A DNA stretch of 64,000 nucleotides from an uncultured SAR86 cluster bacterium (GCA_964276235.1 CAXYEK010000004.1:5228-69227), one strand, 5' to 3'. Counted from the first letter of the stretch, positions 3,045-20,983 are shown. A program made the numbers and translations. Notes: generated by a model from the sequence alone, not told the origin.

Positions 3045-4645
3045 TATATTGGTTTACTGTGGTTTATTGTGAAGCTATTGGTATCTATTAGTCTATACTG
3101 TTTTGATTTGATACTACTTACATACATGAATCTTGCTTCTATTTGATTAGATTCTATAGATAATTTAACAAAACCCTTACCTGAACCATTAGTCCATTTG
3201 AGATTTTTATTTTGCTTGATAAAGTCTTTATCAATATCTTCAGTTCTGTTTCCAAATATATCAACTGAATTTGGAGACGATATTGAAGGTGCGGCTATCT
3301 CTACACCAATAAAATTTTGCATATCATTGTATAAATTTGATATCCATGAATTATGAGTGTCTCCTGTAAGGACTATACTGGATTGAGATTTAGAGAGAAT
3401 ATTAAATAATTTATTTCTTTCTCTTGGGTAACCATCCCAGGAATCTGTATTGTAAGGGATATCCATTCCACCAATTTTTAAGTATTTATGAAGAAATTCA
3501 GGAAAGGAATTTTTATCAAGTTCAGAAAATATTTTAGGTAATACAGTTGGCGAAATAAGAATTTGTTGCCCAATAACTGACCATTTAAAACTGTTATTAA
3601 TATTTTTATCTAACCATTTAAATTGTTCTTTACCTACTAGATTTCTTTTTTTTTGTAGATCTTTTATATATTGTTTTTTATTAAATGTGTCGCCCTTAAA
3701 ATAATTATCAAGATTTAATTGTTTATCTCTATATATAGATCTTGTATCTAGCATAAATAATTGAAATAAAGTCCCTACTTCAAACTTTCTCCATATTTTT
3801 AATTTAGAATTTGATTCTCTTATTGGCATCCATTCATAATACGCCTTTAATGCATTTGCCTTTCTAGTTGAAAAATATCCCTCATCATATGAATGGTTTT
3901 CTGCTCCATTCTTCCATGAATCATTGGCAAACTCATGATCATCCCAAACTGGAATCATTGGTTTTGATGAATGCAATAATTGAAGGTCTTTATCAGTTTT
4001 ATAAAGCGCGTGACGTTCTCTGTAATCATCCAAGCTAATAATCTCAGTAATTGGATTAACTACCCTATTTAGCTTTTTAGCATCCTCTGTGGCATAACCA
4101 TCTGCGCCGTACTCATATAAATAATCCCCTAAATGTAAAACTAGATCAATATCATCATCAAGAGCTATCTCTCTATATGCGTTAAAAAAACCAGCTGGAT
4201 AATTGGAGCAACTGCAAAAAGCCAAGTTAAATTTATCTGGATTTGAGGTTGGTAAAGTTTTGGTTTTACCAATTGGAGAAAAAATATTATTTACAATAAA
4301 ACGATAATATATAGATTCTGCATTATGATTTAATGGAATTTTTGCATCTATTTTCACAGTAAAATTGTTGAAGCTATGTGATTTAGTTTTCCCGTTGCTA
4401 ATGATATTTGAGAAGTCTTTCTTATTAGACACTTGCCAGTCAACGTCTATTTTTAAATTAGTATCTTTTGTAATTTTGGTCCAAATTATTACTCTATCGT
4501 GGGTTGGATCACCACTTGCAACACCATGTTTAAATGATACTTTTTCATTATTGTCTTGTGATAAAAGTTTGGTATTAAAGACAGATATAAGTCCTAAAAA
4601 TTTAATAAAAGATCTTCTTTTCATAAGAAGAAATATATCATCCAA
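3044..4645 (-). CDS. phoD: Alkaline phosphatase D (PhoD family), Tat-exported
   Basis: 533-aa ORF with PhoD metallophosphatase motifs GVASGDP, HLGDYLYEY, VWDDHEF and LTGDTHNSW. Twin-arginine signal MKRRSFIKFLGL; the likely true start is the ATG at 4624. Confidence 0.9.
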   Translation of the reverse strand: MDDIFLLMKRRSFIKFLGLISVFNTKLLSQDNNEKVSFKHGVASGDPTHDRVIIWTKITKDTNLKIDVDWQVSNKKDFSNIISNGKTKSHSFNNFTVKIDAKIPLNHNAESIYYRFIVNNIFSPIGKTKTLPTSNPDKFNLAFCSCSNYPAGFFNAYREIALDDDIDLVLHLGDYLYEYGADGYATEDAKKLNRVVNPITEIISLDDYRERHALYKTDKDLQLLHSSKPMIPVWDDHEFANDSWKNGAENHSYDEGYFSTRKANALKAYYEWMPIRESNSKLKIWRKFEVGTLFQLFMLDTRSIYRDKQLNLDNYFKGDTFNKKQYIKDLQKKRNLVGKEQFKWLDKNINNSFKWSVIGQQILISPTVLPKIFSELDKNSFPEFLHKYLKIGGMDIPYNTDSWDGYPRERNKLFNILSKSQSSIVLTGDTHNSWISNLYNDMQNFIGVEIAAPSISSPNSVDIFGNRTEDIDKDFIKQNKNLKWTNGSGKGFVKLSIESNQIEARFMYVSSIKSKQYRLIDTNSFTINHSKPI

Positions 4646-4837
4646 CTAGATTTAAATGTTAAATAAAATATGTAAATTTTTTAGGAAGATTGTTTACCAT
4701 TTAGTTATAGTTATTAGAAATACTAAATCTACTTTATTTTAACTTATGGCCTAGAGTTAGATTAGAAGATTCAATACCTGCTGTAACTAATGTCTGTTTG
4801 TGTAATAATTTGTATGACAGTTAATACATATAGTTAT

Positions 4838-6157
4838 ATGAAATACATACATATTTTTTTAGTACTCTTATTCTCCATTCCAGCTTTTAGTAATGATATT
4901 GGTGTGCCTGGCCCAAAAGACTGTTTTTGGTCTAGAGGTCCTCATAGCGCTGATCCTTATATAAATCTTGCATATCCAGATGCTAATGTATTTTATTGGG
5001 CAGCAACATTCACAATGCCTGAGGATGTTGAACTTTATTTAGATGGTGATTTCCCTCTTGCTAGATATATGTCAATTATTAGTTACGATGGTCGTGGAAG
5101 ACCTTTAGAATCTCTTGCAGATTATTTAATTGAACCAGAGAAAGACTCTATAAATCCATTTATAAATTCAAACAGTCGAATTGATAAAAATAGAGCTTAC
5201 AAGATACAAGTTTTAAATAATTCACCTGTTACAGATAGGGAAACAGGAAAAATATCTAAAATATCGTCATATAACACTCTTAATGCACCTTCATACGGTC
5301 CAAATCAGCAATTAATAATATATAGAGTGTATTTACCAGATAATAAAACTGGCCCCCTTGGAGGTGTTAATTTACCACAATTAAAGGTAATTAAAGATGG
5401 GAAAACATACGCTGGAAATGATGCTTGTAAGATTTTAAATGCATCACAGAACCTAGCTATTACAATTGATGCAGCTGGAATTCCTCCAATGATGTATAGA
5501 GAACTAGCGTCTCAGACTGATAAGCCTGAAACTTGGCCGGCAAAAAATCCTCCAGAATGGTACATTCAAATGGATAGACAGAGTCTTATTGGGATCTATA
5601 CAGGAGAGTTTAATAATAATGCTCCAAGAAGCACTGGTGGTTTTTTTCCAAATTTAGATAACCACTATCTTAGAACAATTATTAATAGAAAATATGGCAA
5701 AGTGGTTCTTCTTAAAGCTAAGGCCCCTCTTACACCCAAAACATATAACTCTAATCCTACATATAAACAAAATGAACTTAGATATTGGTCTGTTTGTTCT
5801 AATCAAAGTTTTGGCAATACTAGGGTGAATGATTGTTTATTTGATGAAGAGATTCCTTTAGATAAAAATGGATATTTCACAATCTTTGTAAGCAGATTGA
5901 AAGATAGGCCTAGAAATGCGACAAAAGAATGTGGCTATGCATGGTTGCCTATGGCTGATGATGGAGATGGCGTCTTCGATGAAGATGTATCAATTATTCA
6001 ATTTAGACATATGCTGGCAAGTGATGACTTTTCTAATTCTATTCAAAGTGTTGAAAGTCAAAATGATACAAGAAAAGTTATGAATGAGTATTTTCCTAAA
6101 AGTAGATACTTTATGAAAAATCAAGTTGAAAGCTTTTTTCCCTGCATAACTAACTAA
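4838..6157 (+). CDS. Secreted protein of unknown function
   Basis: ORF track gives 4790..6157. The ATG at 4838 yields a clean signal peptide MKYIHIFLVLLFSIPAFS/NDIG. Long intact frame. The C-terminal segment ELRYWSVCSNQ...DKNGYFTIFVS loosely resembles DUF1214-type proteins (from memory, weak). Divergent from phoD. Confidence 0.7.
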   Translation: MKYIHIFLVLLFSIPAFSNDIGVPGPKDCFWSRGPHSADPYINLAYPDANVFYWAATFTMPEDVELYLDGDFPLARYMSIISYDGRGRPLESLADYLIEPEKDSINPFINSNSRIDKNRAYKIQVLNNSPVTDRETGKISKISSYNTLNAPSYGPNQQLIIYRVYLPDNKTGPLGGVNLPQLKVIKDGKTYAGNDACKILNASQNLAITIDAAGIPPMMYRELASQTDKPETWPAKNPPEWYIQMDRQSLIGIYTGEFNNNAPRSTGGFFPNLDNHYLRTIINRKYGKVVLLKAKAPLTPKTYNSNPTYKQNELRYWSVCSNQSFGNTRVNDCLFDEEIPLDKNGYFTIFVSRLKDRPRNATKECGYAWLPMADDGDGVFDEDVSIIQFRHMLASDDFSNSIQSVESQNDTRKVMNEYFPKSRYFMKNQVESFFPCITN

Positions 6158-6178: not shown

Positions 6179-7036
6179 ATGAATAAGAAAGTAGAAATTA
6201 TTTTTAACAAAAAAATGGCTTTTTTAGATGAGGGTAAAGGGGAATCATTAGTTTTTATTCATGGGAACCCAACATCGTCCTACCTATGGAGAAACATAGC
6301 TCCTGAGTTCACTGATAATTTCAGAGTGGTAGTTCCAGATCTAATAGGTATGGGAGATTCTGATAAGCTGGATGGAATAGACAATGTTGACTATAACTTT
6401 AATGGGCAATATAAATATCTTGATGCACTTTTATCAAAATTAACATTAGGAGATAAGATACATTTAGTCATTCATGATTGGGGATGTGGTCTCGGTTTAA
6501 AATATGCAAGATTAAATGCTGAAAAGATCAAGTCAATATCCTTTATGGAAGGAATGGTCGTACCTTTAACATGGGAGGAATGGCCAGATGCAGGTACAAA
6601 AATATTCAAACTTTTTCGATCAGAAGTTGGTGAGGAATTAATTCTTGAGAAAAATTATTTTGTAGAGCGAATTCTTTTTAATGATCCGATAAGCGAAATG
6701 TCAAACGAAACCAAAAATGAATATCTCCGTCCCTTTAGTAAATCTGGAGAAGGAAGACGCCCTACTCTTTCATTCCCAAGAAATATACCTTTAGATACTA
6801 AGCCTGATGAAACTTATAACGAAATACTATTAAATGAAAATTTCCATATGGAATCTAATATTCCAAAACTTTTTATTAATGCAGAACCAGGATTTTTATT
6901 GGTTGGAAGTCAAAGAGACAAGATTAGAAAATGGAACAATATTAAAGAAGTAACTGTTAAAGGAAATCATTTTATTCAAGAGGATTCTCCAAAAGCGATA
7001 ACAGAATATCTAAAAGATTTTTATCAGAATTTATAA
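6179..7036 (+). CDS. Haloalkane dehalogenase (alpha/beta hydrolase, DhaA/LinB type)
   Basis: Signature FIHGNPTSSYLWRNIAP, Asp-nucleophile elbow IHDWG, and C-terminal catalytic His context GNHFIQEDSP. Length 285 aa is typical. Confidence 0.88.
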   Translation: MNKKVEIIFNKKMAFLDEGKGESLVFIHGNPTSSYLWRNIAPEFTDNFRVVVPDLIGMGDSDKLDGIDNVDYNFNGQYKYLDALLSKLTLGDKIHLVIHDWGCGLGLKYARLNAEKIKSISFMEGMVVPLTWEEWPDAGTKIFKLFRSEVGEELILEKNYFVERILFNDPISEMSNETKNEYLRPFSKSGEGRRPTLSFPRNIPLDTKPDETYNEILLNENFHMESNIPKLFINAEPGFLLVGSQRDKIRKWNNIKEVTVKGNHFIQEDSPKAITEYLKDFYQNL

Positions 7037-7714: not shown

Positions 7715-8986
7715 TTAGTATAAATCATCTAATTCATAATCAATACATTTTTGTTTAAAATTCTTTTTATGTTCTGTAACAGTTAATAAATCTTTATCCT
7801 TCTTCGATGGATAATTTGTCTTTACGAGTTCTTTTAATTCTTTATTAATTTTTCCTTTAACTTTGCCGTATTTACCATTAATTAAATCAACCATTTCATT
7901 TGTTAATGATTCATATCTTTTTGAATTCCTGATATTTAATAAAGCTTGAGTACCAACAATCTGAGATGATGGAGTAACTAATGGAATGTAACCGAGGTCT
8001 TTTCTGATTTTTGGTATCTCATTTATAAGATCGGAAAGTTTTTCTTCCATACCAAGGTCTCTTAGCTGACTTTCAAAATTACTAAGCATTCCACCTGGAA
8101 CCTGATTGGTAAGCATTTTAGTATCAATACCTTTTAAGCTCCCTTCATGATCTGCATATTTAACTCTAATATTTGCAAAATATTCTGATATTTCATTAAG
8201 AAGCTTCATGTCATAGGGATTTTTACTATCTTTATAAATCATGGAGATAAAACTTTCTGTTGCAGTATGACCATATGTCCCACTAAAAGATGATATTGAG
8301 GTATCAATATTATCAACACCTGCTTCAAAAGCTTTTAGATTTGTAGCATCCGACAAGCCAGTTGTCGCATGGGTGTGGAGATAGATTGGTATTTTTAAAT
8401 TCTTTTTCAATAAAGTTATAAGATCAAATGCCTCATAAGGTCTTAACAAACCAGACATATCCTTAATTGCAACTGATGAGGCACCTATATCTTCAATATT
8501 TTTAGCAAGCTTTAACCAATATTTATTGTTATGAATTGGGCTAGTGGTATAGGCAATAGTGCCTTGTGAATGTTTATTATTAGCATTAATAAATCTTATT
8601 GATGATTCAATATTTGTTATATCATTTAACGAATCAAAAGTTCTAAAAATATCTATACCAGATTTTGCTGCATTTTTAATAAAAAGAGAAACTACAGAAT
8701 CATCAAATTTTTTATAGCCTACAATATTTTGTCCTCTCAAAAGCATTTGAAGTTTTGTTTTTTTAAAAGATCTTTTAAAGAGTTTAAGACGATCCCAAGG
8801 ATTCTCATTGAGATATCTTAGACAACAATCATAAGTTGCTCCTCCCCATACCTCTACAGAAGAAAATCCAACTTTATCCATTTTTGGGATAATAGGGAGC
8901 ATGTCACCAACCTTCATTCTAGTTGCCAAAATAGACTGTTGCCCGTCTCTTAAAACAACTTCTGTAATCTTGGTATTAATTTTCAT
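7715..8986 (-). CDS. Oxaloacetate decarboxylase alpha / transcarboxylase 5S-type carboxyltransferase, no biotinyl domain
   Basis: VVLRDGQQSILATRM, AIKDMSGLLRP, LHTHATTGL and VPGGMLSNFESQL are the HMGL-like plus PYC_OADA carboxyltransferase motifs. The ORF is 423 aa with no A-M-K-M biotinylation motif. Confidence 0.8.
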   Translation of the reverse strand: MKINTKITEVVLRDGQQSILATRMKVGDMLPIIPKMDKVGFSSVEVWGGATYDCCLRYLNENPWDRLKLFKRSFKKTKLQMLLRGQNIVGYKKFDDSVVSLFIKNAAKSGIDIFRTFDSLNDITNIESSIRFINANNKHSQGTIAYTTSPIHNNKYWLKLAKNIEDIGASSVAIKDMSGLLRPYEAFDLITLLKKNLKIPIYLHTHATTGLSDATNLKAFEAGVDNIDTSISSFSGTYGHTATESFISMIYKDSKNPYDMKLLNEISEYFANIRVKYADHEGSLKGIDTKMLTNQVPGGMLSNFESQLRDLGMEEKLSDLINEIPKIRKDLGYIPLVTPSSQIVGTQALLNIRNSKRYESLTNEMVDLINGKYGKVKGKINKELKELVKTNYPSKKDKDLLTVTEHKKNFKQKCIDYELDDLY

Positions 8987-8990
8987 TTTT

Positions 8991-10238
8991 TTAGTTATTT
9001 AATGTATTTATAAAACTATAGACTGCAGATGCGCAAGCTTCTGGATTTTCGATTACGTTAAAATGAGCAGCATTAGGTATTATGTTAAAAGCACTAAACC
9101 TTGCAGAATCTTTGAGTTGAATGCTTTTATATAGACCATGATTAGTTATATATTGATCTTGGATCGGTACTGACTCTTGATATTCAGAATCTGGATAAAT
9201 ATCTTCAATTTCATTTCTAAATAAATTATATTTTCCAAAATATGGTTGATCTGAAACAATCATTCCATTTGGTGCTCGTTTAAATTCATCTTCACCCTGA
9301 AACTGCATAATAGGTGTCTTTGTATCTTTAAATTTCTTTCTATTTTCAACTTCGTGCTTCATACCGCCTTGAACTAATGACTGTTGAAATTTCTTATAGT
9401 AACTTTTATAGGCAACTTGAGATGATAATTTTAAATGTGTATATCTATCAAATAGGTGAGTGCCCTTTTTAGCTTTTCTCCCTTTATTTACAAAATCTGG
9501 AGAAAGAAGCTGTATAGGTTTGTTTAAGATGATAACAGAAAATAAAAGAATTCTTAGTTGGTGGTATGAAGACATGACACTATGTGGAGGGCCTACAAGA
9601 ACCTTTGGTGCTAATTTTTTCCATTCAGGATCAGCATAATTCCAAACTTGAGAACCTCTTGAATAAGATAATGCTTTCTCTGGGTTGCTCATGCAAAGAT
9701 TTTCAAGAATTACAGCACCTCTATCGTGCCCAATTAAGTGAGCTGATTCTATGCTCATAGCATCCATCAATAATTTTATAATTTTAGATTGATTTAGATG
9801 ACTATATTTTTGATCCACTTTCATCTTAGAGAAGTCTATAATTTTTTTACTAGTTAAACTCTCACCATCAGATATCGCGAAGACATTTGCGAGTTCAATA
9901 TTAAAATGATCTTCGTAATATGGCATGTTAAATATTATTATTCTAAGTGAATCATCAATTTTATTTAAACAATCAGCCATCCAGGACATTGACTTTATAG
10001 GCTCTGTAGGTATCCCCCCTATTAATATAAGAGTTTTTTCTGAAACAGCATCCTCACTACCAATTTCCCATACAGAGTGTCTTTCACTATTTACAGTAAT
10101 ATAATATTTCTTAAAATTTGAAAACTCTATCAAAGGTTTATTAAGAAATTTTTCTCTAAAAAATATTCTCAAATTAAAATAAATATCTATAAATATAAAA
10201 ATAAAATGCGTTGATACCTTGAGTACAAGATCAAGCAT
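8991..10238 (-). CDS. Alpha/beta hydrolase with Asp nucleophile (epoxide hydrolase / haloacetate dehalogenase-like)
   Basis: Nucleophile elbow LIGHDRGA (Asp rather than Ser) and C-terminal His context NAAHFNVIENPE. 415 aa with a large cap insertion. Its ATG directly abuts the mmsA stop (10238/10239). Confidence 0.7.
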   Translation of the reverse strand: MLDLVLKVSTHFIFIFIDIYFNLRIFFREKFLNKPLIEFSNFKKYYITVNSERHSVWEIGSEDAVSEKTLILIGGIPTEPIKSMSWMADCLNKIDDSLRIIIFNMPYYEDHFNIELANVFAISDGESLTSKKIIDFSKMKVDQKYSHLNQSKIIKLLMDAMSIESAHLIGHDRGAVILENLCMSNPEKALSYSRGSQVWNYADPEWKKLAPKVLVGPPHSVMSSYHQLRILLFSVIILNKPIQLLSPDFVNKGRKAKKGTHLFDRYTHLKLSSQVAYKSYYKKFQQSLVQGGMKHEVENRKKFKDTKTPIMQFQGEDEFKRAPNGMIVSDQPYFGKYNLFRNEIEDIYPDSEYQESVPIQDQYITNHGLYKSIQLKDSARFSAFNIIPNAAHFNVIENPEACASAVYSFINTLNN

Positions 10239-11726
10239 TTAGTTATCGTTTTTTGGGAAACCTAAGTCTACTTTACTCTCAGCTGGATCAGGCCATCTTG
10301 TAGCAATTGATTTAGTTTTTGTATAAAACTCTATAGATGAGTTTCCGAACGCCTTAGTTTCTGAAAAACCACTATCTTTCCACCCACCAAAGCTATGCGA
10401 GTAAGTAGGAAGAGGAATTGGAAGATTAATACCAACTGACCCAGCTTGAACTTCATTAGCCCATTTTTGCGATACTCCACCATCACGAGTAAATAAAGCA
10501 GCTCCGTTTCCAAGCTTATGTCCATCAGTTATTTCCATTGCTTCTTCATAAGATTTAGCTCTAACAAAACATAAAACAGGTCCAAATATCTCGTTTTCAT
10601 ATACAGACATTCCAGGTTTAACGTGGTCAATCAAAGTAGCCCCAACAAAAGAACCCTCTTCTTCATCAGACAGCTTTCTTCCATCAACAACTAAAGATGC
10701 TCCATCAGGTTCAGCTGATTCAATGAATGAATATATGCGTTCTTTATTTTCCTTAGAAATAACAGGGCCTAATTGTGTATTTGGATCATCTGTTTTACCC
10801 ATTATAAGACTTGGCATTCTTTCTTTAATTTTATTTACTAACTCATCAGCAATGTCTCCAACAGCAACAACAACTGATACAGCCATACATCTTTGTCCAG
10901 CAGCTCCAAAACTTGCTGAGACAGCAGCATCTGCAGCCATATTAAGATCAGCATCTGGAAGAACAATCATATGATTCTTTCCTCCACCAAGAGCCTGAAC
11001 TTTAGTATTATTTTGAACTCCCAATATTTTTAAACTCTTAGCTACTGGTGTACTTCCTATAAATGCTAAACCAGCTACTTTTTCATGAGAGACTAATTGC
11101 TCAACAACATCCTTTCCTCCATTTAAAACACTATAACAACCATCTGGAAAACCAGATTCTTTAAATATGTCGGCATAAAGTCTTGATATCGATGGCACCT
11201 TTTCACTAGGTTTAGCAATAAAGGTGTTTCCAGTGACTATAGCCATAGAGGCATGAAGAATAGGTATTAATATTGGGAAATTAAATGGTCCACAGCCAGC
11301 AACAACTCCTATTGGATATCTAACATCCGTTATATCTATTCCACCTGCAACATTAGGACTCATAATAGACGGGTAGAAATGCTGAACGCCTGCAGTATGT
11401 GTAAGAGCCTGGATAGCTCTATCTAACTCAGCCTCTGCATCTGGTCTTGTTTTGCCTGCTTCGTTTACACAAATATCTATTATCTCTTCTGATCTATTGA
11501 TAACACCTTGTCTAAATTTCAATATCAATTCAGCTCTGTAACTTAAACCAGTTTTTGACCAAGTTTTAAAAGTTTTTGCTGCTGATTCAATTGCCTTATC
11601 AGCACTAACTTTAGTTGCATAAATGACTTCACCGATTTGAGTTCCATATGAAGGATTTATAATATTTATAGATTCGTTAGATTCTAAGCATTCTTTACCA
11701 TCTATATAGTTTGTTACTTTGTACAT
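10239..11726 (-). CDS. mmsA: CoA-acylating methylmalonate/malonate-semialdehyde dehydrogenase
   Basis: 495-aa ALDH fold with catalytic Cys context GQRCMAVS and the typical MMSDH length and motifs (FNFPILIP, GGKNHMIV). Confidence 0.85.
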   Translation of the reverse strand: MYKVTNYIDGKECLESNESINIINPSYGTQIGEVIYATKVSADKAIESAAKTFKTWSKTGLSYRAELILKFRQGVINRSEEIIDICVNEAGKTRPDAEAELDRAIQALTHTAGVQHFYPSIMSPNVAGGIDITDVRYPIGVVAGCGPFNFPILIPILHASMAIVTGNTFIAKPSEKVPSISRLYADIFKESGFPDGCYSVLNGGKDVVEQLVSHEKVAGLAFIGSTPVAKSLKILGVQNNTKVQALGGGKNHMIVLPDADLNMAADAAVSASFGAAGQRCMAVSVVVAVGDIADELVNKIKERMPSLIMGKTDDPNTQLGPVISKENKERIYSFIESAEPDGASLVVDGRKLSDEEEGSFVGATLIDHVKPGMSVYENEIFGPVLCFVRAKSYEEAMEITDGHKLGNGAALFTRDGGVSQKWANEVQAGSVGINLPIPLPTYSHSFGGWKDSGFSETKAFGNSSIEFYTKTKSIATRWPDPAESKVDLGFPKNDN

Positions 11727-11784
11727 ATTAATATCCTACCCTATTGAATTTATTTAAACTAAAATTAATTATATCCAATCTATA

Positions 11785-11800
11785 CTAGTCAGTTGACTAG
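11785..11800. promoter_or_regulatory. Candidate operator, palindrome CTAGTCA-GT-TGACTAG
   Basis: 7+7 inverted repeat in the 104-nt divergent gap, 31 nt upstream of the monooxygenase ATG and 59 nt from the mmsA ATG. The same arms recur at 18186-18201. Confidence 0.6.
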
Positions 11801-11830
11801 GAAAAAGCAACAAAGCGAGTACAATAAGTA

Positions 11831-13405
11831 ATGAATTATGATATAGCAATAATTGGTTATGGACCTGTAGGCGCAACTGCAGCAAATATGTTTGCTGCAA
11901 AGGGTTTTAGTGTAATCGTAGTTGAACCAAAAAAAGAGATTTGGGATATACCGAGGGCTGTTCATTTCGATGGACAAACACAAAGAATATTTCAATCTAT
12001 GGGTATCTTTGATCAAATCAAAAAAATAATTGACCCCATAACAGGTGTAAACTTTCTAAATAGAAAAGGTAAAAAACTTTTAGGCATTTCCTTTGAAAGT
12101 CATCCAAAAGTTAATGGATATTATGAAGGTGTTATGTTTAATCAACCTAAGTTTGAAAAAATTATTAGAGATAATGCTCTTAATTTTAATAATATAGATT
12201 TTAAAATAGGTGCATATGTCAGCAAACTAGAGTCTTTAAATAATACTAATAATTTTGAAATTATCGATTGTGAAACAAATGAGGCTTCTACTTTTACTTC
12301 TACCTATTTAATTGGCTCGGATGGAGCTGATAGTTTTATTAGAAAAAGTCTTAATGTTAATTTATATGATTATAAGTGCGATCAAGATTGGATTGTTGTC
12401 GATTATCTGGTCGATAAAAAATATAAAATACTTGATAAATCAAGGTATCAGATTTGTGATTACAAAAGACCAACAACCCTTTTGCCAATAACAGATAATC
12501 ATGTCCGATGGGAGTTCAAAATTAATCCAAAAGATGATGTAGATAAATTAGAAACAGAAGAAAGCATTCGCAGTTTTATGAGCCCTCATATGTGGAGATT
12601 AAATCCTGATATAGACCTAAATTCTGGTGAGCTTATAAGATCAAGTAAATATACCTTTCATGGCTTATTGGCTGATAACTTTAAAGTTAATAATTGTTTT
12701 TTAATAGGCGATGCTGCTCATCAAACTCCTCCCTTTCTTGGTCAAGGGCTATGCCAAGGTATAAAAGATGCTTATAACTTGTCTTGGAAATTAGCTGGTG
12801 TAAAAGAAGGTATTTACAATAAAAAAATTCTAAATTCTTTTGATACTGAAAGAAGAGAAGTTAATGAATTTATGATTAAAACTGCTATTAAACAAGGTGA
12901 CGTGATTGGAAGTCAAAATATATTAAAGGCATTTATTAGAGATATGTTTTTTGTTTTTGCTAAAAATTTTCCCAAAGCACTTACAGCCCTAAAATTTCAA
13001 TATAGCTGGAGATTTACAAACGGCATTCTTGATAATGATTTATATCCGAACAACGTAAATGGTGTGATATTTCCACAACCTGACATATCTATCGAATTTG
13101 AAAATAAAAAATTTGATCAGTACATTAAAGATTCATTTTCATTAATTATATTTAACAATGATAAAACTTTACTCGATGATCTTAATAAAATCGAAACTAT
13201 AAGCTTATATGATAATAATATTCACTTTTTTGATAACTCTCATCCCTTCATGAGTGACGGTAAGTTAATTGAATGGTCTAGTGCTAATGGCGTCTCAGCT
13301 GTTATTATCAGGCCTGATAAACATGTTTATGGTTGTTGTGATAACAATGATATTTTAGCAAAAATAACAAATTTAACGAATAAGCTTCATCAGGAATTAA
13401 TATGA
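11831..13405 (+). CDS. FAD-dependent aromatic ring hydroxylase (MhpA/PcpB-class flavoprotein monooxygenase)
   Basis: N-terminal dinucleotide fold DIAIIGYGPVGATAANMFAAKG, PRAVHFDGQTQRIF, and FAD/substrate motif GDAAHQTPPFLGQGLCQGIKDAYNLSWKL. 524 aa. Confidence 0.85.
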   Translation: MNYDIAIIGYGPVGATAANMFAAKGFSVIVVEPKKEIWDIPRAVHFDGQTQRIFQSMGIFDQIKKIIDPITGVNFLNRKGKKLLGISFESHPKVNGYYEGVMFNQPKFEKIIRDNALNFNNIDFKIGAYVSKLESLNNTNNFEIIDCETNEASTFTSTYLIGSDGADSFIRKSLNVNLYDYKCDQDWIVVDYLVDKKYKILDKSRYQICDYKRPTTLLPITDNHVRWEFKINPKDDVDKLETEESIRSFMSPHMWRLNPDIDLNSGELIRSSKYTFHGLLADNFKVNNCFLIGDAAHQTPPFLGQGLCQGIKDAYNLSWKLAGVKEGIYNKKILNSFDTERREVNEFMIKTAIKQGDVIGSQNILKAFIRDMFFVFAKNFPKALTALKFQYSWRFTNGILDNDLYPNNVNGVIFPQPDISIEFENKKFDQYIKDSFSLIIFNNDKTLLDDLNKIETISLYDNNIHFFDNSHPFMSDGKLIEWSSANGVSAVIIRPDKHVYGCCDNNDILAKITNLTNKLHQELI

Positions 13406-14001
13406 AAAAAACAACATCAAAAAATAAAGGTAGGAAAAGTGTAGAAAAAAGACTTATAGATTCTACTGAAGAGCTTGTAGCATCAATTAGTCCTAACCAA
13501 CTTACAATTCGAGATATTGCAGATCATGCTGGAGTTAATCATGGACAAATACATCACTATTTTGGTAACAAAGAAGGTCTATTAAAGGCAACGTATAGGC
13601 AGATGGCATTTGAGCATGGTGAGCAATTAGATAGAAGAGATATATCTGCAAATAATTTACCAGACATGGCACTTTCTGATATAACTAATGACTACTTTAG
13701 CGCTATCATCCGAGCAGTTTTGGATAATAAGATGGATGTCGTTGTTCAAGAAAATGATAATCTTCATGTCTCTAGAAAAATGGTTAATGAGATAACAGCT
13801 CTTAAAGGGTTAAAGAAGCCTAGTCCAGAAATTAAAGCAGCGATTGCTCTTACAATGTGCATAGAATTTGGCTTAACAGCAATGAAACCTTATATAGAAA
13901 AAGTATTAGATTTAAATGATGTGGAAATGGAAAAATTTATTCAGACCATTGTTGATGTTAGAACCACTGAATTTAAAAAGCTACTTGAAGATGTTAAATA
14001 A
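13402..14001 (+). CDS. TetR-family transcriptional regulator
   Basis: N-terminal HTH TIRDIADHAGVNHGQIHHYFGNKEGLL. 199 aa. ATGA overlap with the upstream monooxygenase. Confidence 0.85.
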   Translation: MKKTTSKNKGRKSVEKRLIDSTEELVASISPNQLTIRDIADHAGVNHGQIHHYFGNKEGLLKATYRQMAFEHGEQLDRRDISANNLPDMALSDITNDYFSAIIRAVLDNKMDVVVQENDNLHVSRKMVNEITALKGLKKPSPEIKAAIALTMCIEFGLTAMKPYIEKVLDLNDVEMEKFIQTIVDVRTTEFKKLLEDVK

Positions 14002-15547
14002 AAAAACAATTCTAATACCACTAATTTTGGCATCTTTTATAGAAGCTAGACCAAATGTCATTATTATTCTAACTGATGACCTTGGCTGGGGTGATGTTAG
14101 CTATCACGGTGGCTCTATACCTACTCCAAACATGGATAAACTCGCATCAAAGGGAATTGAGCTAAATAGATTCTATGCAAATCCAACATGTAGCCCTACT
14201 CGCGCTTCCTTATTGACTGGATTAAATGTTTTCAATCATGGTGTCATTAGACCTTTTATGAATCCAACTGCTGAGCAGATTGGGCTAAATGAAAATCTAA
14301 AAATAATGCCTGAATATTTTCAAGAAGCTGGATATCAAACAGCAATGTCAGGGAAATGGCATTTAGGAATGCATAAAAAGGAATTTAGACCAATCAATAG
14401 AGGCTTTGAAACCACATATGGTCATATGCTTGGTGGTCTTGGTTACTTTGACCATGTTTCCGCTGGAAGAGTTGACTGGCATAGAGATGGAATAGCTCTT
14501 GAAGAAGATGGTTATTCAACAGAATTAATAGCCAATGAGGCAGTTCGTATTATTGAAAATAAAGACCCAGAGCGCCCTCTTTTTTTATATGTTGCATTTA
14601 ATGCACCTCACACACCAATTCAAGCACCCATCAAGAACATTGAAAATTTTTTACATATTGAGAATTTATTAGATAGAACTTATGCAGCAAATGTTAATAA
14701 ATTAGATTTAGAAATTGGAAAAATAATTGACTCCATAGATAGTGCTGGATTATTAGAAGAAACAATAATAGTTTTTTTTAGTGATAACGGACCTGTTTTT
14801 GATATTCCTGCTATTGGTCAAGTTATTGCTCCAGGATTAATGGAAGCCAGAGGAAGTCCAGGTAAATTAACTGGAAGTAAAATGTATGCTTCAGAAGGTG
14901 GAATCCGAGTTCCTGCTAGTATTTGGTGGAAAGGCGTAATAGAAAATTCAAAGACTGATCAATTTTTCTTTGTCCAAGACCTATTGCCAACACTTCTATC
15001 TGCAACTGGAATTGGCATAGATAAGAATATAGAATTTGATGGCAATAATAAATGGGACAATCTACTAAATGGAAATCTTGAATTACCTGTAAATGATCTG
15101 GTTGCTAATAGAGTAATAAATGATGAAAGAGCATTATTTAATAACGAATGGAAGCTTTACTATAGCAATCCTGTAATGATAAGTGGAGGAGCTAAATACA
15201 GTCTATTCAATGTTATGAATGATCCGTATGAACAAAATGATCTATCCTCTTCTAATGCTGAAATCTTCGAGCAAATGAAAATAACCATGATGAGCATGGA
15301 AGAAAATAACGTTCAACCAGATATTAACCCAGTTAAACAATATCTCCATGGAGATACCGAGGGTGGTAAAATTGTTGGAAGCCCCTGGCTTGAAGGTGAC
15401 TATAAAACAGAAGGCACCCCATCAGGATTTGTAAGCTTTTTTGTTATGTCGTGGATAATATTTTTAGCCTTCAAATTACAGATAATTGGATTTATATTTA
15501 TACTTATACTCAGCAGAATTTTATACAAAAAATTTATAAAATCTTAA
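13991..15547 (+). CDS. Formylglycine-dependent sulfatase (arylsulfatase family), exported, with C-terminal membrane tail
   Basis: The CSPTRASLLTG (C-x-P-x-R) motif follows LTDDLGWGDV, and FSDNGP is also present. The ATG at 13991 gives signal peptide MLNKKTILIPLILASFIEA; the track start at 13916 runs inside tetR. The last ~40 aa are hydrophobic. Confidence 0.88.
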   Translation: MLNKKTILIPLILASFIEARPNVIIILTDDLGWGDVSYHGGSIPTPNMDKLASKGIELNRFYANPTCSPTRASLLTGLNVFNHGVIRPFMNPTAEQIGLNENLKIMPEYFQEAGYQTAMSGKWHLGMHKKEFRPINRGFETTYGHMLGGLGYFDHVSAGRVDWHRDGIALEEDGYSTELIANEAVRIIENKDPERPLFLYVAFNAPHTPIQAPIKNIENFLHIENLLDRTYAANVNKLDLEIGKIIDSIDSAGLLEETIIVFFSDNGPVFDIPAIGQVIAPGLMEARGSPGKLTGSKMYASEGGIRVPASIWWKGVIENSKTDQFFFVQDLLPTLLSATGIGIDKNIEFDGNNKWDNLLNGNLELPVNDLVANRVINDERALFNNEWKLYYSNPVMISGGAKYSLFNVMNDPYEQNDLSSSNAEIFEQMKITMMSMEENNVQPDINPVKQYLHGDTEGGKIVGSPWLEGDYKTEGTPSGFVSFFVMSWIIFLAFKLQIIGFIFILILSRILYKKFIKS

Positions 15548-16206
15548 ATAATCTCACAAACTTCATCAAAATTTAGTCTAGGTAATCTCATAAATATTTT
15601 TGATGGATCTCCGTAACCTATACAACATAAAAAATTGGATTTTATATTGGTATCTTTGAAAAATATTTGATCAACCAGATCATTATTAAAACCAGACATA
15701 GGCCCACAATCTAAACCTAGAGCTCTTGATACCATCATAAAGTAGGCTCCCTGAAGACTACTATTCCTAAATGCTGTTGCTTGATTAAATTCAGCATTCC
15801 CTTTGTACATAGGTGCAATATCCATATGAGGGAATAATTTACTCATATTATCTGAGAAATCAAGATCATAGCCTATGACTGCTACTACCGGAGCACTCAT
15901 TACCTTGTCAATGTTATTAGGCAACAATGCTTCTTTTAATAACTGCTTTTGCTCTTCACTCTTTATAAATTTAAATCTAGCAGGACAGCAATTTGTACTT
16001 GTTGGGCCCATCTTAGTGAGTTCATAGATTGATTTAATAATATCATCACTAACATCTTTATCTTGCCAACCATTCATACTTCTTGCTTCACCAAACAATA
16101 AATCTATCTGATCTTTGTTTAAGTTATCTGCATTTTCTTTTAAATTGCTAAATCTAGTTTGAGCAGCAGCAACTGCTTTTTTTTGATCATCTGTGAGCTC
16201 TATCAT
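15544..16206 (-). CDS. Nitroreductase-family oxidoreductase, HadB/RutE subfamily-like
   Basis: GPTSTNCCPARF, AFRNSSLQGAYFMMVSRALGLDCGPMSGF and C-terminal RLPRLNFDEV closely parallel E. coli RutE as I recall it. 220 aa. Confidence 0.75.
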   Translation of the reverse strand: MIELTDDQKKAVAAAQTRFSNLKENADNLNKDQIDLLFGEARSMNGWQDKDVSDDIIKSIYELTKMGPTSTNCCPARFKFIKSEEQKQLLKEALLPNNIDKVMSAPVVAVIGYDLDFSDNMSKLFPHMDIAPMYKGNAEFNQATAFRNSSLQGAYFMMVSRALGLDCGPMSGFNNDLVDQIFFKDTNIKSNFLCCIGYGDPSKIFMRLPRLNFDEVCEII

Positions 16207-17306
16207 GATTGACCCTCAGCTTCTGCTTTAGCAGCTTTTTCCATTTCTTTAATCATTCCTGGAATCGTTGGATTTGATGCACGCGCATTATCAATCTGAT
16301 CAACTGGCATAGTTATTCCAAATGTATTTGGAACCTCCGGTCCGTATTGAGCCATTGCCAAGTCTCTAAAGCCTGAATTTTCAGTTGGAACAGATGCATC
16401 TATTAAATCACCGTCAGTCCAATGTTCATGCGTAAATCCATGAGGATCTCTCCAATAGTCATACATTTGGCTGCCTAATAAATGTCTGCCAATACCCCAT
16501 TCATGATAATACTCATCAACAGTTTTCATATGATAATGACCAGCCATCAAGTCATCTACTGAATCTTGAACTTCATATCCAGCATGTCCAAATGCTACAG
16601 CACTAGCTTCACCAGGAAGACCCATATTGTTCATAGTATGATGGTCAACTGGCTTATCTCCTTGATCGCATCTCATGAAAGCACCCATTGAAACTCCATC
16701 AGGTCCAATACAATTATTACTTATTAGAAAACCTAATGTATTTGAATACCAATCAACTGAAGCTTGAGGATCTTTACAATTAATAGCAGTATGACCTAGT
16801 CGCTTAACTTTTGAAGTTAATTCATATACCCACTTATCACCATGAACTTGCCATTCATCTGCAGCTTTTCCAAAACGTTGTAATTCATTCTCTCTTTGTT
16901 TTGACCCACCTGTATTTAAAACTTTTGAAACAACAGCAACAGGTTCAGCTTCAATCATACCGTGACATACCTCAACTTCTACACCGTCTGGATCAATAAC
17001 AGTTACCTTATGACCTCCAGCAAGTTCAGTATTTTCAACAATATCAACATTGAATTCTTTAGACAAGGCTTCTAAATCACTATAATCATTAGCTTTATAA
17101 GCAGATCCTATATATTTATTTTCTTCGCCTTTTGTTGCGACATAAATATAAGGTGATGCTCCAGTGCCTCTAAAAAAGATACTATTTTCATCCTCATGCG
17201 CAAGCATCATCCCGAAATGATTGAGGTATTTTTTTTGAGCTTCAAATTCTGTAAGTTCAAACCTTACATAAATAATATCAGCTACTTTGCATATTGGATT
17301 ATTCAT
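16203..17306 (-). CDS. Two-domain VOC-fold type I extradiol ring-cleavage dioxygenase
   Basis: Metal-ligand contexts LGHTAI, FGHAGYEV and GIGRHLLGSQMYDYWRDPHGFTHEHW fit the GRH..Y..DP.G...E extradiol signature. 367 aa. Confidence 0.75.
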   Translation of the reverse strand: MNNPICKVADIIYVRFELTEFEAQKKYLNHFGMMLAHEDENSIFFRGTGASPYIYVATKGEENKYIGSAYKANDYSDLEALSKEFNVDIVENTELAGGHKVTVIDPDGVEVEVCHGMIEAEPVAVVSKVLNTGGSKQRENELQRFGKAADEWQVHGDKWVYELTSKVKRLGHTAINCKDPQASVDWYSNTLGFLISNNCIGPDGVSMGAFMRCDQGDKPVDHHTMNNMGLPGEASAVAFGHAGYEVQDSVDDLMAGHYHMKTVDEYYHEWGIGRHLLGSQMYDYWRDPHGFTHEHWTDGDLIDASVPTENSGFRDLAMAQYGPEVPNTFGITMPVDQIDNARASNPTIPGMIKEMEKAAKAEAEGQS

Positions 17307-18171
17307 TATTATCTCCTATTAATAATTTATTAATTTCTGACCAAACAAGGTGATCATAAGTATTAGGTCCATCCCCATAAAGTGATTGAATTTCTGGTGC
17401 CCATTCACCAGTAACGTAATCAAGTATACCTTCCTTATAACTATCCCTAGTTGAAATAGTTTCCCAGTAGGATTTAAGATTAGGCAATTTACTACTTTCT
17501 AAAACACTATTAAAACGCATTTCATAAACCCTATGAAGAATAGATGTCATACAACAATCAATAGCTGTATATTCATCTCCCATCATGAATTGTTTATTGT
17601 GATTTAAGACTCCTTCTATATATACAAGGTGTTTTGCAAGCATTATAGACATTTTTTTACACAAACTTACAGGAGGTTTTCCTAAAATTCGTAGCATTAT
17701 AAATATTGGAACTCTCTTCCTTATAGAATGTTTTGTTACATAATCCCATACAACACTAGTTAGTGGTCTTTTGCATAACATTTTAACTAAAAGCTGCGCA
17801 GATATGCCGCCCGCTGTAGTACCTAGAGTTTCACCAAGCTCTTTAGTTTCATCTAAAGTCACAAAATCTAACAAGCTTTCAAACATTTCATTATTTGGAT
17901 GATCAGGAAATAATAGCTGCCCTTGTTGAGGATATTTTTTATCAATATATCTCATTATTTGGATGCTATCAGGTATTGGACTTCCATGATCAACTAATGT
18001 CGGAACAAGATTCTTAGGATTTAGTTTTTTGTATTCTTTACTTAAATGGTCTCCTTTGGATTCAAGATAAAGAAGATTATATTTATATGAAATATTTTTT
18101 TCAGACAAGGCAACCCTTGCCATATTTGAAGCAACCGATTCACCGTAACCATATAATTCAAGATTATTCAT
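17299..18171 (-). CDS. Glutathione S-transferase family protein, long (290 aa)
   Basis: Thioredoxin-like N-domain LELYGYGESVASNMARVAL...KLNPKNLVPTLV plus a helical C-domain. 8-nt overlap with the downstream dioxygenase. Confidence 0.75.
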   Translation of the reverse strand: MNNLELYGYGESVASNMARVALSEKNISYKYNLLYLESKGDHLSKEYKKLNPKNLVPTLVDHGSPIPDSIQIMRYIDKKYPQQGQLLFPDHPNNEMFESLLDFVTLDETKELGETLGTTAGGISAQLLVKMLCKRPLTSVVWDYVTKHSIRKRVPIFIMLRILGKPPVSLCKKMSIMLAKHLVYIEGVLNHNKQFMMGDEYTAIDCCMTSILHRVYEMRFNSVLESSKLPNLKSYWETISTRDSYKEGILDYVTGEWAPEIQSLYGDGPNTYDHLVWSEINKLLIGDNNE

Positions 18172-18184
18172 ACTCTTGCTTTAT

Positions 18185-18202
18185 TCTAGTCATATGACTA
18201 GA
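18185..18202. promoter_or_regulatory. Candidate operator, perfect palindrome tCTAGTCA-TA-TGACTAGa
   Basis: 18-bp perfect inverted repeat in the 65-nt divergent gap, 15 nt from the GST ATG and 36 nt from the FAH ATG. The arms are identical to the site at 11785-11800. Confidence 0.65.
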
Positions 18203-18236: not shown

Positions 18237-19148
18237 ATGGGTTTTGTTTTAGGTAATATAAAGGGTAGATCTTCTTTAATAAAGGATAATCATTTTTATG
18301 ATATTGAGACTATTTCTAATGGATCTGTAAGTTCAGACCCATCACAAATTCTTCTTTCACTTGATCAACTAAGTGACTTATATAACACAATTGATAGTTT
18401 TGAGCCTACAGGTTTAGTTAACGATGATGATCTAAAGGCACCTATCACAAATTCAGGAAATTGTTTTGCTGTTGGACTTAACTATAAAAAACATGCTGAA
18501 GAATCAAATATGGCCCTTCCTGAATTCCCTATGATTTTTGCTAAATATACTTCATGTATAGTTGGGCCCTTTCATGAAGTAGAGTTAAGAAGTGATATGG
18601 TTGATTATGAAGCTGAATTAGTTGCTGTAATTGGCAAACCTGGAAAGGATATTGCATTAGAGAATGCTTGGGATCATGTTGCAGGTTTAACTGCAGGTCA
18701 AGATATTTCAGATAGAGCAGTTCAATTTCATTCAACACCACCTCATTTCAATCTTGGTAAATCTTTTGATACTTTTGGACCTATAGGGCCAATTCTTGTT
18801 TCCCCAGATAAATTCAAAGATAAGAGTTCATTGAAATTAGAATGTTATGTTAATGATGAATTACGTCAAGATGAAAATACAAATGACCTAATATTTGATA
18901 TTCCTTACATCATTTCATATCTATCAGAATTTTTAACACTTAAAACTGGAGATTTAATTTTTACAGGAACTCCTGCAGGCGTTGGAGCTACTCAAGGTAA
19001 ATTATTAAAAGATGGGGATGTTATAAGAACGACCATTGAGGGAATTGGTACTATTGAAAATAAATGTAGAAGAATATCAGATCATTCTAATACCTCTCAT
19101 ATACCTGAGTTTCTAAAATCAAGACTACCTCAGGATTCTGAAGACTAA
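18237..19148 (+). CDS. Fumarylacetoacetate hydrolase (FAH) family protein
   Basis: AVGLNYKKHAEE, VDYEAELVAVIGK and LKTGDLIFTGTPAGVG are the FAH-fold motifs. 303 aa. Confidence 0.85.
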   Translation: MGFVLGNIKGRSSLIKDNHFYDIETISNGSVSSDPSQILLSLDQLSDLYNTIDSFEPTGLVNDDDLKAPITNSGNCFAVGLNYKKHAEESNMALPEFPMIFAKYTSCIVGPFHEVELRSDMVDYEAELVAVIGKPGKDIALENAWDHVAGLTAGQDISDRAVQFHSTPPHFNLGKSFDTFGPIGPILVSPDKFKDKSSLKLECYVNDELRQDENTNDLIFDIPYIISYLSEFLTLKTGDLIFTGTPAGVGATQGKLLKDGDVIRTTIEGIGTIENKCRRISDHSNTSHIPEFLKSRLPQDSED

Positions 19149-19426: not shown

Positions 19427-20983
19427 ATGGATGTTGAACTAAAAGGATCGCTTGCAGAAACTTTTAGATGGCGATGCAAGAACTCTGCAAACTCCACAGC
19501 AATTAAATTTCTTGATAGAGAGCAAACTTATGCTCAATTCGATACTAATTCAAATAAAGTAGCGCAGGGATTACTAAATTTTGGTATAAAAAAAGATTCG
19601 CGCATTGCATATTTAGCAAAGAATACTGATTACTTTTTTGAAATTTTAAATGGTGGCCTTAAATCAGGTTCTGTAACTGTTGGAGTTAACTGGAGACTCA
19701 CAGCTGAAGAAGTTGCATACGTATTAGAAGATTCTAAAAGTGAGCTTGTCTTTGTTAGCTCAGATTTTTTTGAAATCATAGACAGTATTAAAGATAAGGT
19801 TTCTTCATTAAAAAATATTATTGCTATAGATGGTGTTTACTCAAATTGGTTTAATTATGTTGAGTGGAGAGATTCTCAAAAAGATCTCGATCCATATATT
19901 GAATCTAATGAAAATGATGATGTAGTTCAGCTCTATACTTCTGGAACAACTGGAAATCCTAAAGGTGTTCAACTAACTAATAGAAATTTTTCGAGTGCAA
20001 CCGAGTCTACACTTCAAGTTGTCCCAATTACATATGAGAGTCCTTGTATGGTGTGTATGCCTGTTTATCATGTTGCAGGCACTAATTTTGGAATATGGGG
20101 ACTTCTTCAAGGCTGTAAAAATATAATAATCCCTGAGGTTGATCCAGGATTAATTCTTAATCTAGTAGAAAAGGAAAGAATTGAACTTACAATGTGGGTT
20201 CCTGCTGTAATTCTTTTTTTAATTCAACATCCTAATGCATCTAAGACAGATTTCAGTTCTTTAAAGTTGGTTCTCTATGGAGCCTCTCCTATTGCTGAAG
20301 ATACTCTTTTAAGTGCAATAGACCTAATGAATTGTGATTTCTATCAAGTCTATGGACTTACAGAAACAACTGGAGCAATTACACTTCTATCACCTGAAGA
20401 TCATTCGATAGAGAGAGGAAAATTAAGGTCTTGTGGCAAACCTATACCAGGTGTTGAAATAAAAATAGTTGACGAGAATAAAAATGAAGTACCTACAGGT
20501 GAAGTTGGTGAAATAATTACAAAATCTGATCTAAATATGAAGGGTTATTGGAACAATGATAAAGCAACCTCTGAAGCATTTAATAATTCATGGTTTTACT
20601 CAGGTGACTTGGGCTACTTAGATAAGGATGGATTTTTATTTATACACGATAGACTTAAAGACATGATAGTGTCAGGTGGGGAAAACATATACCCTGCCGA
20701 AGTTGAAAATGCACTTATGAGCAACTCCTTGATTTTGGATGCAGCAGTGGTAGGTATTCCAGATGAGAAATGGGGAGAGTCAACAAAAGCATTTGTTGTC
20801 TTAAAAAAAGAAGGTGAAATTAATGAGGAAGAGATAATAAATTATACTAAAACTAAAATTGCCTCATACAAATGTCCAAAATCTATCAATTTTATAAGTG
20901 AATTACCAAGAAATCCTTCTGGAAAGGTTCTTAGAAGAGAGTTAAGAGCTCCGTTTTGGGAAGGAAAAGATCGAGAAGTTTAA
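19427..20983 (+). CDS. AMP-dependent acyl-CoA synthetase/ligase
   Basis: AMP-binding motif LYTSGTTGNPKGV, plus GDLGYLDKDGFLFIHDRLKDMI and PRNPSGKVLRREL. 518 aa. Confidence 0.88.
   Translation: MDVELKGSLAETFRWRCKNSANSTAIKFLDREQTYAQFDTNSNKVAQGLLNFGIKKDSRIAYLAKNTDYFFEILNGGLKSGSVTVGVNWRLTAEEVAYVLEDSKSELVFVSSDFFEIIDSIKDKVSSLKNIIAIDGVYSNWFNYVEWRDSQKDLDPYIESNENDDVVQLYTSGTTGNPKGVQLTNRNFSSATESTLQVVPITYESPCMVCMPVYHVAGTNFGIWGLLQGCKNIIIPEVDPGLILNLVEKERIELTMWVPAVILFLIQHPNASKTDFSSLKLVLYGASPIAEDTLLSAIDLMNCDFYQVYGLTETTGAITLLSPEDHSIERGKLRSCGKPIPGVEIKIVDENKNEVPTGEVGEIITKSDLNMKGYWNNDKATSEAFNNSWFYSGDLGYLDKDGFLFIHDRLKDMIVSGGENIYPAEVENALMSNSLILDAAVVGIPDEKWGESTKAFVVLKKEGEINEEEIINYTKTKIASYKCPKSINFISELPRNPSGKVLRRELRAPFWEGKDREV

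Follow-up and report, generated by a model that had tools for sequence, protein, structure and literature searches.

Seagrasses, algae and animals make sulfate esters of phenolics, and our literature searches found no bacterial pathway dedicated to such esters as a source of carbon. The arylsulfatase AtsA of Pseudomonas aeruginosa hydrolyzes aryl sulfates for sulfur scavenging and belongs to a sulfur-starvation regulon, and human steryl-sulfatase acts on lipophilic aryl (oestrone) and steroid sulfates. With regard to the aromatic ring, the mhp pathway of Escherichia coli employs the hydroxylase MhpA, followed by extradiol cleavage, in the breakdown of 3-hydroxyphenylpropionate, with the LigB-type dioxygenase MhpB and the IclR-type regulator MhpR. 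Here, we analyzed a locus within a 64,000-nucleotide stretch of DNA from an uncultured SAR86 cluster bacterium (the window; G000:C4:5228-69227), in which three consecutive plus-strand genes at 11831-15547 encode a flavin adenine dinucleotide (FAD)-dependent monooxygenase, a TetR-family regulator and an S1-family sulfatase. We propose, with a probability of roughly 55%, that this trio constitutes the variable, substrate-facing front end of a TetR-controlled regulon for aromatic (aryl-sulfate) catabolism.

The mhp pathway resembles the locus in that a group-A monooxygenase of the NF004829 subfamily is clustered with a ring-cleavage dioxygenase and downstream hydrolytic enzymes. It differs in that the dioxygenase encoded in the window is a VOC-family protein similar to homoprotocatechuate 2,3-dioxygenase (HPCD) instead of LigB-type MhpB, and the regulator is of the TetR rather than the IclR type. 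Further, the window adds genes for a glutathione S-transferase (GST), a fumarylacetoacetate-hydrolase (FAH)-family enzyme, a nitroreductase-family reductase and the exported sulfatase, and its monooxygenase reached only 303 bits against an MhpA equivalog cut-off of 546. A second, uncharacterized relative is found on soil plasmids: that of Microvirga ossetica (NZ_CP016618) carries genes for TetR, FAH, an MhpA-like monooxygenase, a VOC protein and an acyl-CoA synthetase together, and that of Burkholderia stagnalis (NZ_CP156687) the same set minus the monooxygenase. The VOC proteins of this soil cassette are 33–36% identical to that of the window over 89% of the length, and the Microvirga monooxygenase is 28% identical. 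Unlike the window, the cassette contains no sulfatase, GST or nitroreductase-family gene, and its TetR is not orthologous. Since the soil plasmids hold the core cassette without the sulfatase, the latter would be a marine add-on to the aromatic pathway.

The best sequence and fold matches of the sulfatase were S1_19 carrageenan galactose-4-sulfatases (6BIA, 6B0J, 6PRM, 9HH2) and human arylsulfatase B (ARSB; 1FSU), at 1e-53 to 1e-47 and with TM-scores of approximately 0.65–0.74; the catalytic apparatus is identical, and the identity of 27–30% is too low for a subfamily assignment. In contrast to these enzymes, the window's sulfatase has no polysaccharide-utilization context and its clade alone carries a C-terminal membrane anchor, and AtsA scored almost equally well. 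None of the neighborhoods annotated with Pfam contained a gene of a carbohydrate-active enzyme family. AtsA (1HDH) is likewise of the formylglycine type and matched with 169 bits, only its N-terminal half aligning well; its role in sulfur scavenging differs from the context in the window, which is one of carbon catabolism in a lineage unable to reduce sulfite (PMC11582366). Human steryl-sulfatase (1P49, 8EG3), a membrane-associated S1 enzyme with a hydrophobic helix pair, gave a weak match limited to the N-terminal part (1e-30). Its helix pair is internal, whereas that of the window's sulfatase is C-terminal, so the resemblance of the anchors is one of analogy, not homology. All parts of the locus belong to known families; new are their combination, the cassette-like behavior and the membrane anchor, none of which we found described in the literature. 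In line with the first-pass annotation of the window, our searches also returned no characterized operon of this layout.

Organization and conservation of the three genes

The monooxygenase gene (P0001; 11831-13405, 524 amino acids) ends with a TGA at 13403-13405, and tetR (P0002; 13402-14001, 199 amino acids, stop codon TAA at 13999-14001) starts with an ATG at 13402-13404, both genes sharing the ATGA at 13402-13405. The sulfatase gene (P0003; 13991-15547) begins with an ATG 11 nt inside tetR. An alternative in-frame ATG lies upstream, at 13916; the start at 13991, which places a hydrophobic signal peptide at the N-terminus, was preferred because all orthologues open with such a signal sequence, followed by (K/R/Q)PN(I/V)(I/V)IILTDD. 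On re-reading, the coordinates of the three genes and both overlaps given in the first-pass annotation were correct. Its use of the overlaps as evidence of coupling was uninformative: in a crude set of open reading frames from this genome (1.22 Mb in four contigs, ~31% G+C), 267 of the 827 same-strand neighbor pairs overlap (94 with an overlap of exactly 4 nt), the median distance between neighbors being 5 nt. As overlaps are not above chance in this genome, translational coupling alone shows no functional link, and the link proposed for the trio rests on comparative evidence.

The closest protein relatives carry the name "SAR86 cluster bacterium". Several percent of the bacteria in the surface ocean belong to SAR86 (PMC11582366), whose substrates have so far been largely inferred. 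The search covered 201 genomes of the order, split among four families, in agreement with the four described for Magnimaribacterales (PMC11582366). The order monooxygenase–TetR–sulfatase was found in 10 species-level genomes from four genera, namely the genus of the window (G000, G007, G009, G018, G024) and three further genera of the same family (G116, G139, G042, G142, G145); a partial copy lies at a contig end in family f3 (G065). Orthologues of the monooxygenase were present in 13 of the 201 genomes, and each of these 13 has a sulfatase orthologue at most 3 kb away. Three genomes of genus g10 show a rearranged order, as in the Tara contig L025.

A comparison with the closest relative (G009) in 300-bp windows revealed an identity of 0.81–0.85 in the adjacent methylmalonate-semialdehyde dehydrogenase (MMSDH) gene, of 0.57–0.69 over 11739-15638, which is exactly the trio, and of 0.84–0.98 through the reductase, dioxygenase, GST and FAH genes. 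Because this sharp drop is limited to the trio, its genes share a history distinct from that of both flanks; the block could have arisen by allelic replacement of the cassette as a whole or by rapid divergence of its genes together. In the same relative, approximately 850 bp separate the sulfatase and reductase genes (L018 5414-6265), a segment with no counterpart in the window, where the two genes overlap by 4 nt.

Parts of the stretch were contained in 23 runs recorded as RNA. One metatranscriptome contig of 1597 nt (13251-14847) bridges both gene junctions of the trio; as these data are contigs only, a single transcript is unprovable from them and DNA carry-over is possible, and depth was not used to rank genes. 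Among the RNA contigs listed, three from different runs end at 11694, 11753 and 11763 (two with adapter) and another starts at 11842 (with adapter). These ends bracket the operator-like palindrome upstream of the monooxygenase gene and give a weak hint of divergent transcript 5' ends. A scan for promoters and terminators over 11650-15750 yielded counts not above those of shuffled sequence, with no convincing internal promoter or terminator. The view that the three genes form one unit, reached in the first-pass annotation from their overlaps, thus finds support in the conserved order, the joint divergence block and the RNA contig over both junctions.

Class of the monooxygenase and the TetR-family regulator

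The monooxygenase matched PF01494 (5.9e-44) and passed the NCBIfam model of the MhpA-like subfamily, NF004829, over its full length (407.8 bits vs. a cut-off of 390). None of the MhpA equivalog models was reached: NF004831 gave the 303 bits mentioned above, and NF004830, NF004828 and NF004827 were far below their cut-offs. Annotated homologues on plasmids are ~30% identical. No signal peptide precedes the FAD-binding GxGxxG motif, with which the protein opens. By these features, P0001 is classified as a cytoplasmic group-A FAD aromatic-ring hydroxylase of the MhpA-like subfamily. The earlier assignment to the MhpA class therefore holds for the subfamily and the cellular compartment and fails at the level of the equivalogs.

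The regulator carries a PF00440 helix-turn-helix domain (6.4e-12), and the BetI models scored far below their cut-offs. No orthology was found to the TetRs of the soil cassette, of L021 or of L023, so that nothing can be deduced about its ligand from these comparisons.

Operator-like palindromes and the candidate regulon

Two copies of the palindrome CTAGTCA-NN-TGACTAG were detected in the window, where 0.16 would be expected, and they are the only perfect copies in the 1.22 Mb genome. The first, CTAGTCA-GT-TGACTAG (11785-11800), lies in the gap from which the MMSDH operon and the monooxygenase gene diverge, and the second, CTAGTCA-TA-TGACTAG (18186-18201), in that from which the GST operon and the FAH gene diverge. 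The position of the first is conserved in L013, L014, L018, L019 and L025. The closest relative (G009, L018) retains both sites, of which one is perfect and the other deviates at a single position, the counterpart of the second palindrome being at L018 8919. In G007, G018 and G024, the gap upstream of the monooxygenase gene contains the variant TAACCACTTGACTAA, and the site upstream of the GST operon reads TAACCACTTGGATAA in G007 and G018 and TAACCAGTTGGATAA in G024, both near-identical to TAACCACTTGACTAA. Since these three genomes carry near-identical variants at both places, the two sites changed in parallel, as is expected of operators under one regulator.

The palindromes appear to tie the trio to the dioxygenase/GST/reductase, FAH and MMSDH operons in a candidate shared regulon, with the TetR protein P0002 as the presumed repressor acting at both sites. 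Within genus g1, that of the window, the dioxygenase was found in exactly 5 of 25 genomes, which are those carrying the sulfatase. The MMSDH (E ≤ 1e-100) was unmatched in five sulfatase-less genus-mates; without a positive control this search was left unused, and the dioxygenase search was taken instead.

A perfectly dyad-symmetric variant, TTAGTCAATTGACTAA, was also noted outside the window (G000:C1:775907-775922; L026 4408-4423), approximately 200 bp upstream of a gene for a 1035-amino acid TonB-dependent receptor (Plug domain, 4.7e-17), a candidate for the importer that serves the regulon at the outer membrane.

Catalytic motifs and membrane anchor of the sulfatase

The sulfatase domain (PF00884, 1.7e-55) covers residues 21-341. 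A predicted signal peptide occupies residues 1-19 (13991-14047), and the formylglycine signature C67-S-P-T-R71 is encoded at 14189-14203; both features were located where the first-pass annotation had placed them. The motifs CSPTRASLLTG, TDDLGWGD, GKWH, APH, SDNG and GSK are kept in 15 relatives and invariant across 31 homologues, and the full signature and the catalytic residues are strictly conserved over roughly 50% sequence divergence. Foldseek returned a probability of 1.00 against many S1 structures. By family and motifs, P0003 is thus predicted to be a complete Cys-type S1 (formylglycine) sulfatase. No exact match to it was present in the contig collection, and a pattern scan of genome contigs brought up no SAR86 locus; the sulfatases recovered were all distant ones (37% identity or less), of which only L027 was considered further.

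At the C-terminus, a hydrophobic two-helix anchor spans residues ~479-518 (15425-15544). It consists of two hydrophobic segments with a conserved (A/S/G)(F/H)K-type turn between them and basic residues at the end. All orthologues with 51% identity or more have this tail, and the paralogues at 39–40% identity lack it. AlphaFold2 placed helices at 479-493 and 495-517 with pLDDT values of 82–94, in a model whose mean pLDDT is 68 and whose loops around the active site are below 50. From these features, the tail would tether the periplasmic catalytic domain to the membrane.

The genome encodes a second sulfatase at G000:C1:388576-390318 (L109), of 580 amino acids, with PF00884 and SGSH_C domains and conserved order-wide. 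Its same-strand cluster comprises a DSBA-like protein, an alpha/beta hydrolase and two GSTs, and divergent to this cluster lie genes for a sodium:solute symporter, an SDR protein and an acyl-CoA ligase. Sulfatases paired with GSTs and hydrolases recur in SAR86.

The sulfatase in a second aromatic operon

In genus g8 of family f3, as well as on metagenomic contigs from NCBI and JGI, an orthologous sulfatase (62–64% identity, with the same C-terminal tail) lies in the middle of the same-strand operon SDR–GST–VOC–sulfatase–FAD monooxygenase–FAH (L015, L023, L024). The FAH is also orthologous to that of the window (57–64% identity) and the enzyme families are the same. This operon differs from the window in that no tetR lies within it, the sulfatase gene is at mid-operon and a gene for a TonB-dependent receptor is divergently adjacent. 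The g8 monooxygenase and VOC protein are only 28–33% identical to those of the window and not orthologous to them; therefore, two different ring-specific enzyme pairs have been joined to one sulfatase clade. Tail-less paralogues (39–40% identity) in families f2 and f4 adjoin FAH, GST, VOC or TetR genes.

On L023, the g8-type operon is flanked (674-5195 and 13664-14965) by genes for a TonB-dependent receptor, a TetR protein and two cytochromes P450, which suggests a broader island for the oxidation of hydrophobic compounds.

The proposed pathway and its alternatives

In the proposed pathway, a sulfated phenolic, probably lipophilic, would enter the periplasm, perhaps via a TonB-dependent receptor, and the Sec-exported, membrane-tethered sulfatase would hydrolyze its aryl-O-sulfate ester. 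The freed phenol would then partition through the membrane to be hydroxylated in the cytoplasm to a diol by the MhpA-like FAD monooxygenase, the VOC extradiol-type dioxygenase would cleave the ring, and the GST, the FAH-family hydrolase, the nitroreductase-family reductase and the aldehyde-dehydrogenase operon would process the product. Via the sites at 11785-11800 and 18186-18201, TetR would keep all four transcription units repressed as long as no pathway ligand is bound. What we infer from the sequence comprises all substrates, the direction in which the pathway runs, the sulfatase activity and the recognition of the palindromes by TetR. Given that the island encodes no inner-membrane transporter, an economical explanation would be that an anchored sulfatase releases a lipophilic phenol directly to the bilayer. 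Zosteric acid and bromophenol sulfates, put forward in the first-pass annotation, are pure speculation as substrates.

Seawater is rich in sulfate. SAR86 genomes lack sulfite reductase (PMC11582366); therefore, the released sulfate cannot serve sulfur nutrition, and the sulfatase most plausibly serves access to carbon. Co-regulation of sulfatase, hydroxylase and ring-cleavage genes would give the flux of phenolic sulfates a genetic handle and a meta-omics marker, and would supply a concrete growth hypothesis for the first SAR86 isolate.

A number of findings weigh against this pathway, the first group of which concerns the integrity of the trio. A frameshift near residue 325 interrupts the monooxygenase gene of G007 (L013 10140-11700), and that of G145 (G145:C1:743421-744914) contains two in-frame stops, with the sulfatase gene and tetR intact in both genomes; gene decay may be the cause, or assembly error in these metagenome-assembled genomes. 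In L025, the sulfatase gene lies on the far side of a divergent aldehyde-dehydrogenase operon, with no operator-like motif ahead of it, and a GST gene follows tetR instead. Further, the genomes compared are relatives and not independent observations. Together with the ubiquity of overlaps in this genome, the relocation in L025 and the relatedness of the genomes that share the trio would fit a lack of any functional link, the arrangement being due to tight packing and operon mosaicism in a streamlined genome and its conservation to vertical inheritance within one family. We regard this as improbable, given that sulfatase-family genes are kept beside monooxygenase, VOC, GST and FAH genes in three gene orders and three or four families, that the divergence block is sharply bounded at the ends of the trio and that an RNA contig covers tetR and the sulfatase gene.

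The second group of adverse findings concerns maturation. Neither a formylglycine-generating enzyme (FGE; PF03781) nor an anaerobic sulfatase maturase (anSME; TIGR03942) was found in G000, G018, G042, G026 and G032, four of which are at least 90% complete (G000, 85.6%), in a search that matched the control genomes. The Cys-type sulfatase would then need an unrecognized route of maturation, and a strictly conserved enzyme of this type with no known FGE detected is a biochemical question in its own right. This result, as well as a secondary PF01663 match and a weak PehA match, would be in line with a protein that does not work as a sulfatase in vivo, i.e., a promiscuous phosphodiesterase/phosphonate-monoester hydrolase or a poorly active enzyme. 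The strict conservation of the signature and the catalytic residues over roughly 50% divergence argues against this. Moreover, a lack of known maturases does not settle the matter, since Cys-type sulfatases are matured in E. coli by a route yet to be identified. We therefore consider it very improbable that the protein is not a working sulfatase.

Thirdly, homology does not single out aryl sulfates. The best solved relatives are carbohydrate 4-O-sulfatases, namely the carrageenan sulfatases of S1_19 (naming according to PMC9096561) and human ARSB, with the P. aeruginosa arylsulfatase marginally behind them (25–26% identity). The equivalog model of AtsA-type arylsulfatases, NF010322, was not reached (143.6 bits in four stretches vs. 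a cut-off of 481), and neither was that of the choline sulfatase BetC, TIGR03417 (79.2 bits vs. 433). With carbohydrate 4-O-sulfatases and AtsA nearly tied and neither equivalog model reached, homology cannot decide the substrate class.

The fourth group concerns gene context, the sulfatase clade being wider than the aromatic cassette. An FAH orthologue lies within 12 kb of the sulfatase gene at 18 of the 57 orthologue loci (56 genomes) and is missing from this range at the other 39. Among the genomes searched, g6 and g9 carry the sulfatase and no FAH orthologue, and in g3 the two genes are 76–78 kb apart or on separate contigs. In these lineages, the neighbors of the sulfatase gene are mixed: TonB-dependent receptors, Cys/Met pyridoxal phosphate (PLP) enzymes, a haloalkane-dehalogenase homologue and a MAPEG protein.

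These data on homology and context bear on the main rival explanation, in which the substrate is non-aromatic (a sulfoglycolipid or a sugar, sterol or alkyl sulfate) and the sulfatase merely shares a flexible island with aromatic genes. It would fit the known lipid-oriented periplasmic degradation of SAR86, whose arylsulfatases the pangenome study of the order assigned to the desulfation of sulfoglycolipids (PMC11582366), and a lipid substrate would go well with a membrane anchor. Sugar 4-O-sulfatases are the closest structures, two thirds of the sulfatase orthologues have no aromatic cassette nearby, and the neighbors in L016, L017 and L020 are TonB-dependent receptors, Cys/Met PLP enzymes and the dehalogenase. 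Against it stand the position of the sulfatase gene midway in a same-strand aromatic operon in g8, its proximity in all 13 genomes that have a P0001-type monooxygenase and the divergence block common to the trio. Moreover, these clusters contain no glycoside hydrolase or lipid gene, and the second, order-wide sulfatase could fill the lipid role. Taken together, we judge a non-aromatic substrate unlikely, albeit the most serious competitor of the aryl-sulfate pathway. The interpretation in the first-pass annotation, with desulfation ahead of ring hydroxylation, is partly supported.

A bolder version of the aryl-sulfate regulon, which we hold to be rather doubtful, would have interchangeable specificity cassettes of sulfatase, TetR and hydroxylase plug into a conserved ring-cleavage backbone and be swapped between genera for different sulfated phenolics in seawater, with a clade of membrane-anchored sulfatases matured by an unrecognized route. 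If true, a regulon devoted to carbon catabolism from aryl sulfates would have been described for the first time, in one of the most abundant heterotrophs of the ocean.

On L017 (9569-11787; G029, genus g6), the same strand carries genes for a Cys/Met-metabolism PLP enzyme and a PALP-family enzyme after the sulfatase orthologue, a setting of sulfur amino acids that differs from the aromatic one.

Neighboring genes in the window

Downstream of the trio, a minus-strand operon consists of GST, dioxygenase and reductase genes. Its last gene, convergent with the sulfatase gene and overlapping it by 4 nt, encodes a RutE-like nitroreductase-family reductase (15544-16206; PF00881; NF003768, 273.5 bits vs. 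a cut-off of 152). It is preceded by the gene for the two-domain VOC-family extradiol-type dioxygenase (16203-17306, minus strand; PF00903). A profile built from seven dioxygenase homologues matched 3b59 first among PDB entries, followed by HPCDs, over the full length and at 4e-10 and weaker. H172, H241 and E294, the 2-His-1-carboxylate metal site, are invariant in the seven homologues, and the protein looks like an HPCD-like extradiol dioxygenase of the type I VOC class. As for a hydroquinone dioxygenase, neither PcpA nor LinE was named among the 54 PDB profile matches with E-values up to 1, which is a weak negative, as the presence of their structures in the PDB copy searched was not checked.

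The first gene of the operon encodes the GST (17299-18171, minus strand; Pfam GST_N and GST_C), the N-terminal domain of which resembles zeta-class maleyl-isomerases; TIGR01262 (maiA) remained below its cut-off with 75.9 bits. Divergent from it, the FAH-family enzyme (18237-19148, plus strand; PF01557, 1.2e-64) is similar to HpcE/HpaG, with a PDB match to 6v77 (9e-55). An acyl-CoA ligase gene (19427-20983, plus strand; PF00501) lies 3' of the FAH gene and is a possible member of the regulon; an acyl-CoA synthetase gene also adjoins the monooxygenase/VOC/FAH cassette on the soil plasmids, with low similarity.

Upstream of the trio, the minus-strand MMSDH operon comprises the genes for MMSDH (10239-11726; TIGR01722, 498 bits vs. 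a cut-off of 448), an alpha/beta hydrolase (8991-10238) and an OadA-like carboxyltransferase that lacks a biotin domain (7715-8986). Its synteny is kept in L013, L014, L018 and L025.

The window also contains a haloalkane-dehalogenase homologue at 6179-7036 (NF002938 equivalog, 317 bits). A homologue 58% identical to it adjoins the sulfatase orthologue on L020 (9556-10416; G038, genus g9), with MAPEG and PhoD-like genes nearby. PhoD, dehalogenase and sulfatase genes thus also form a wider conserved neighborhood.

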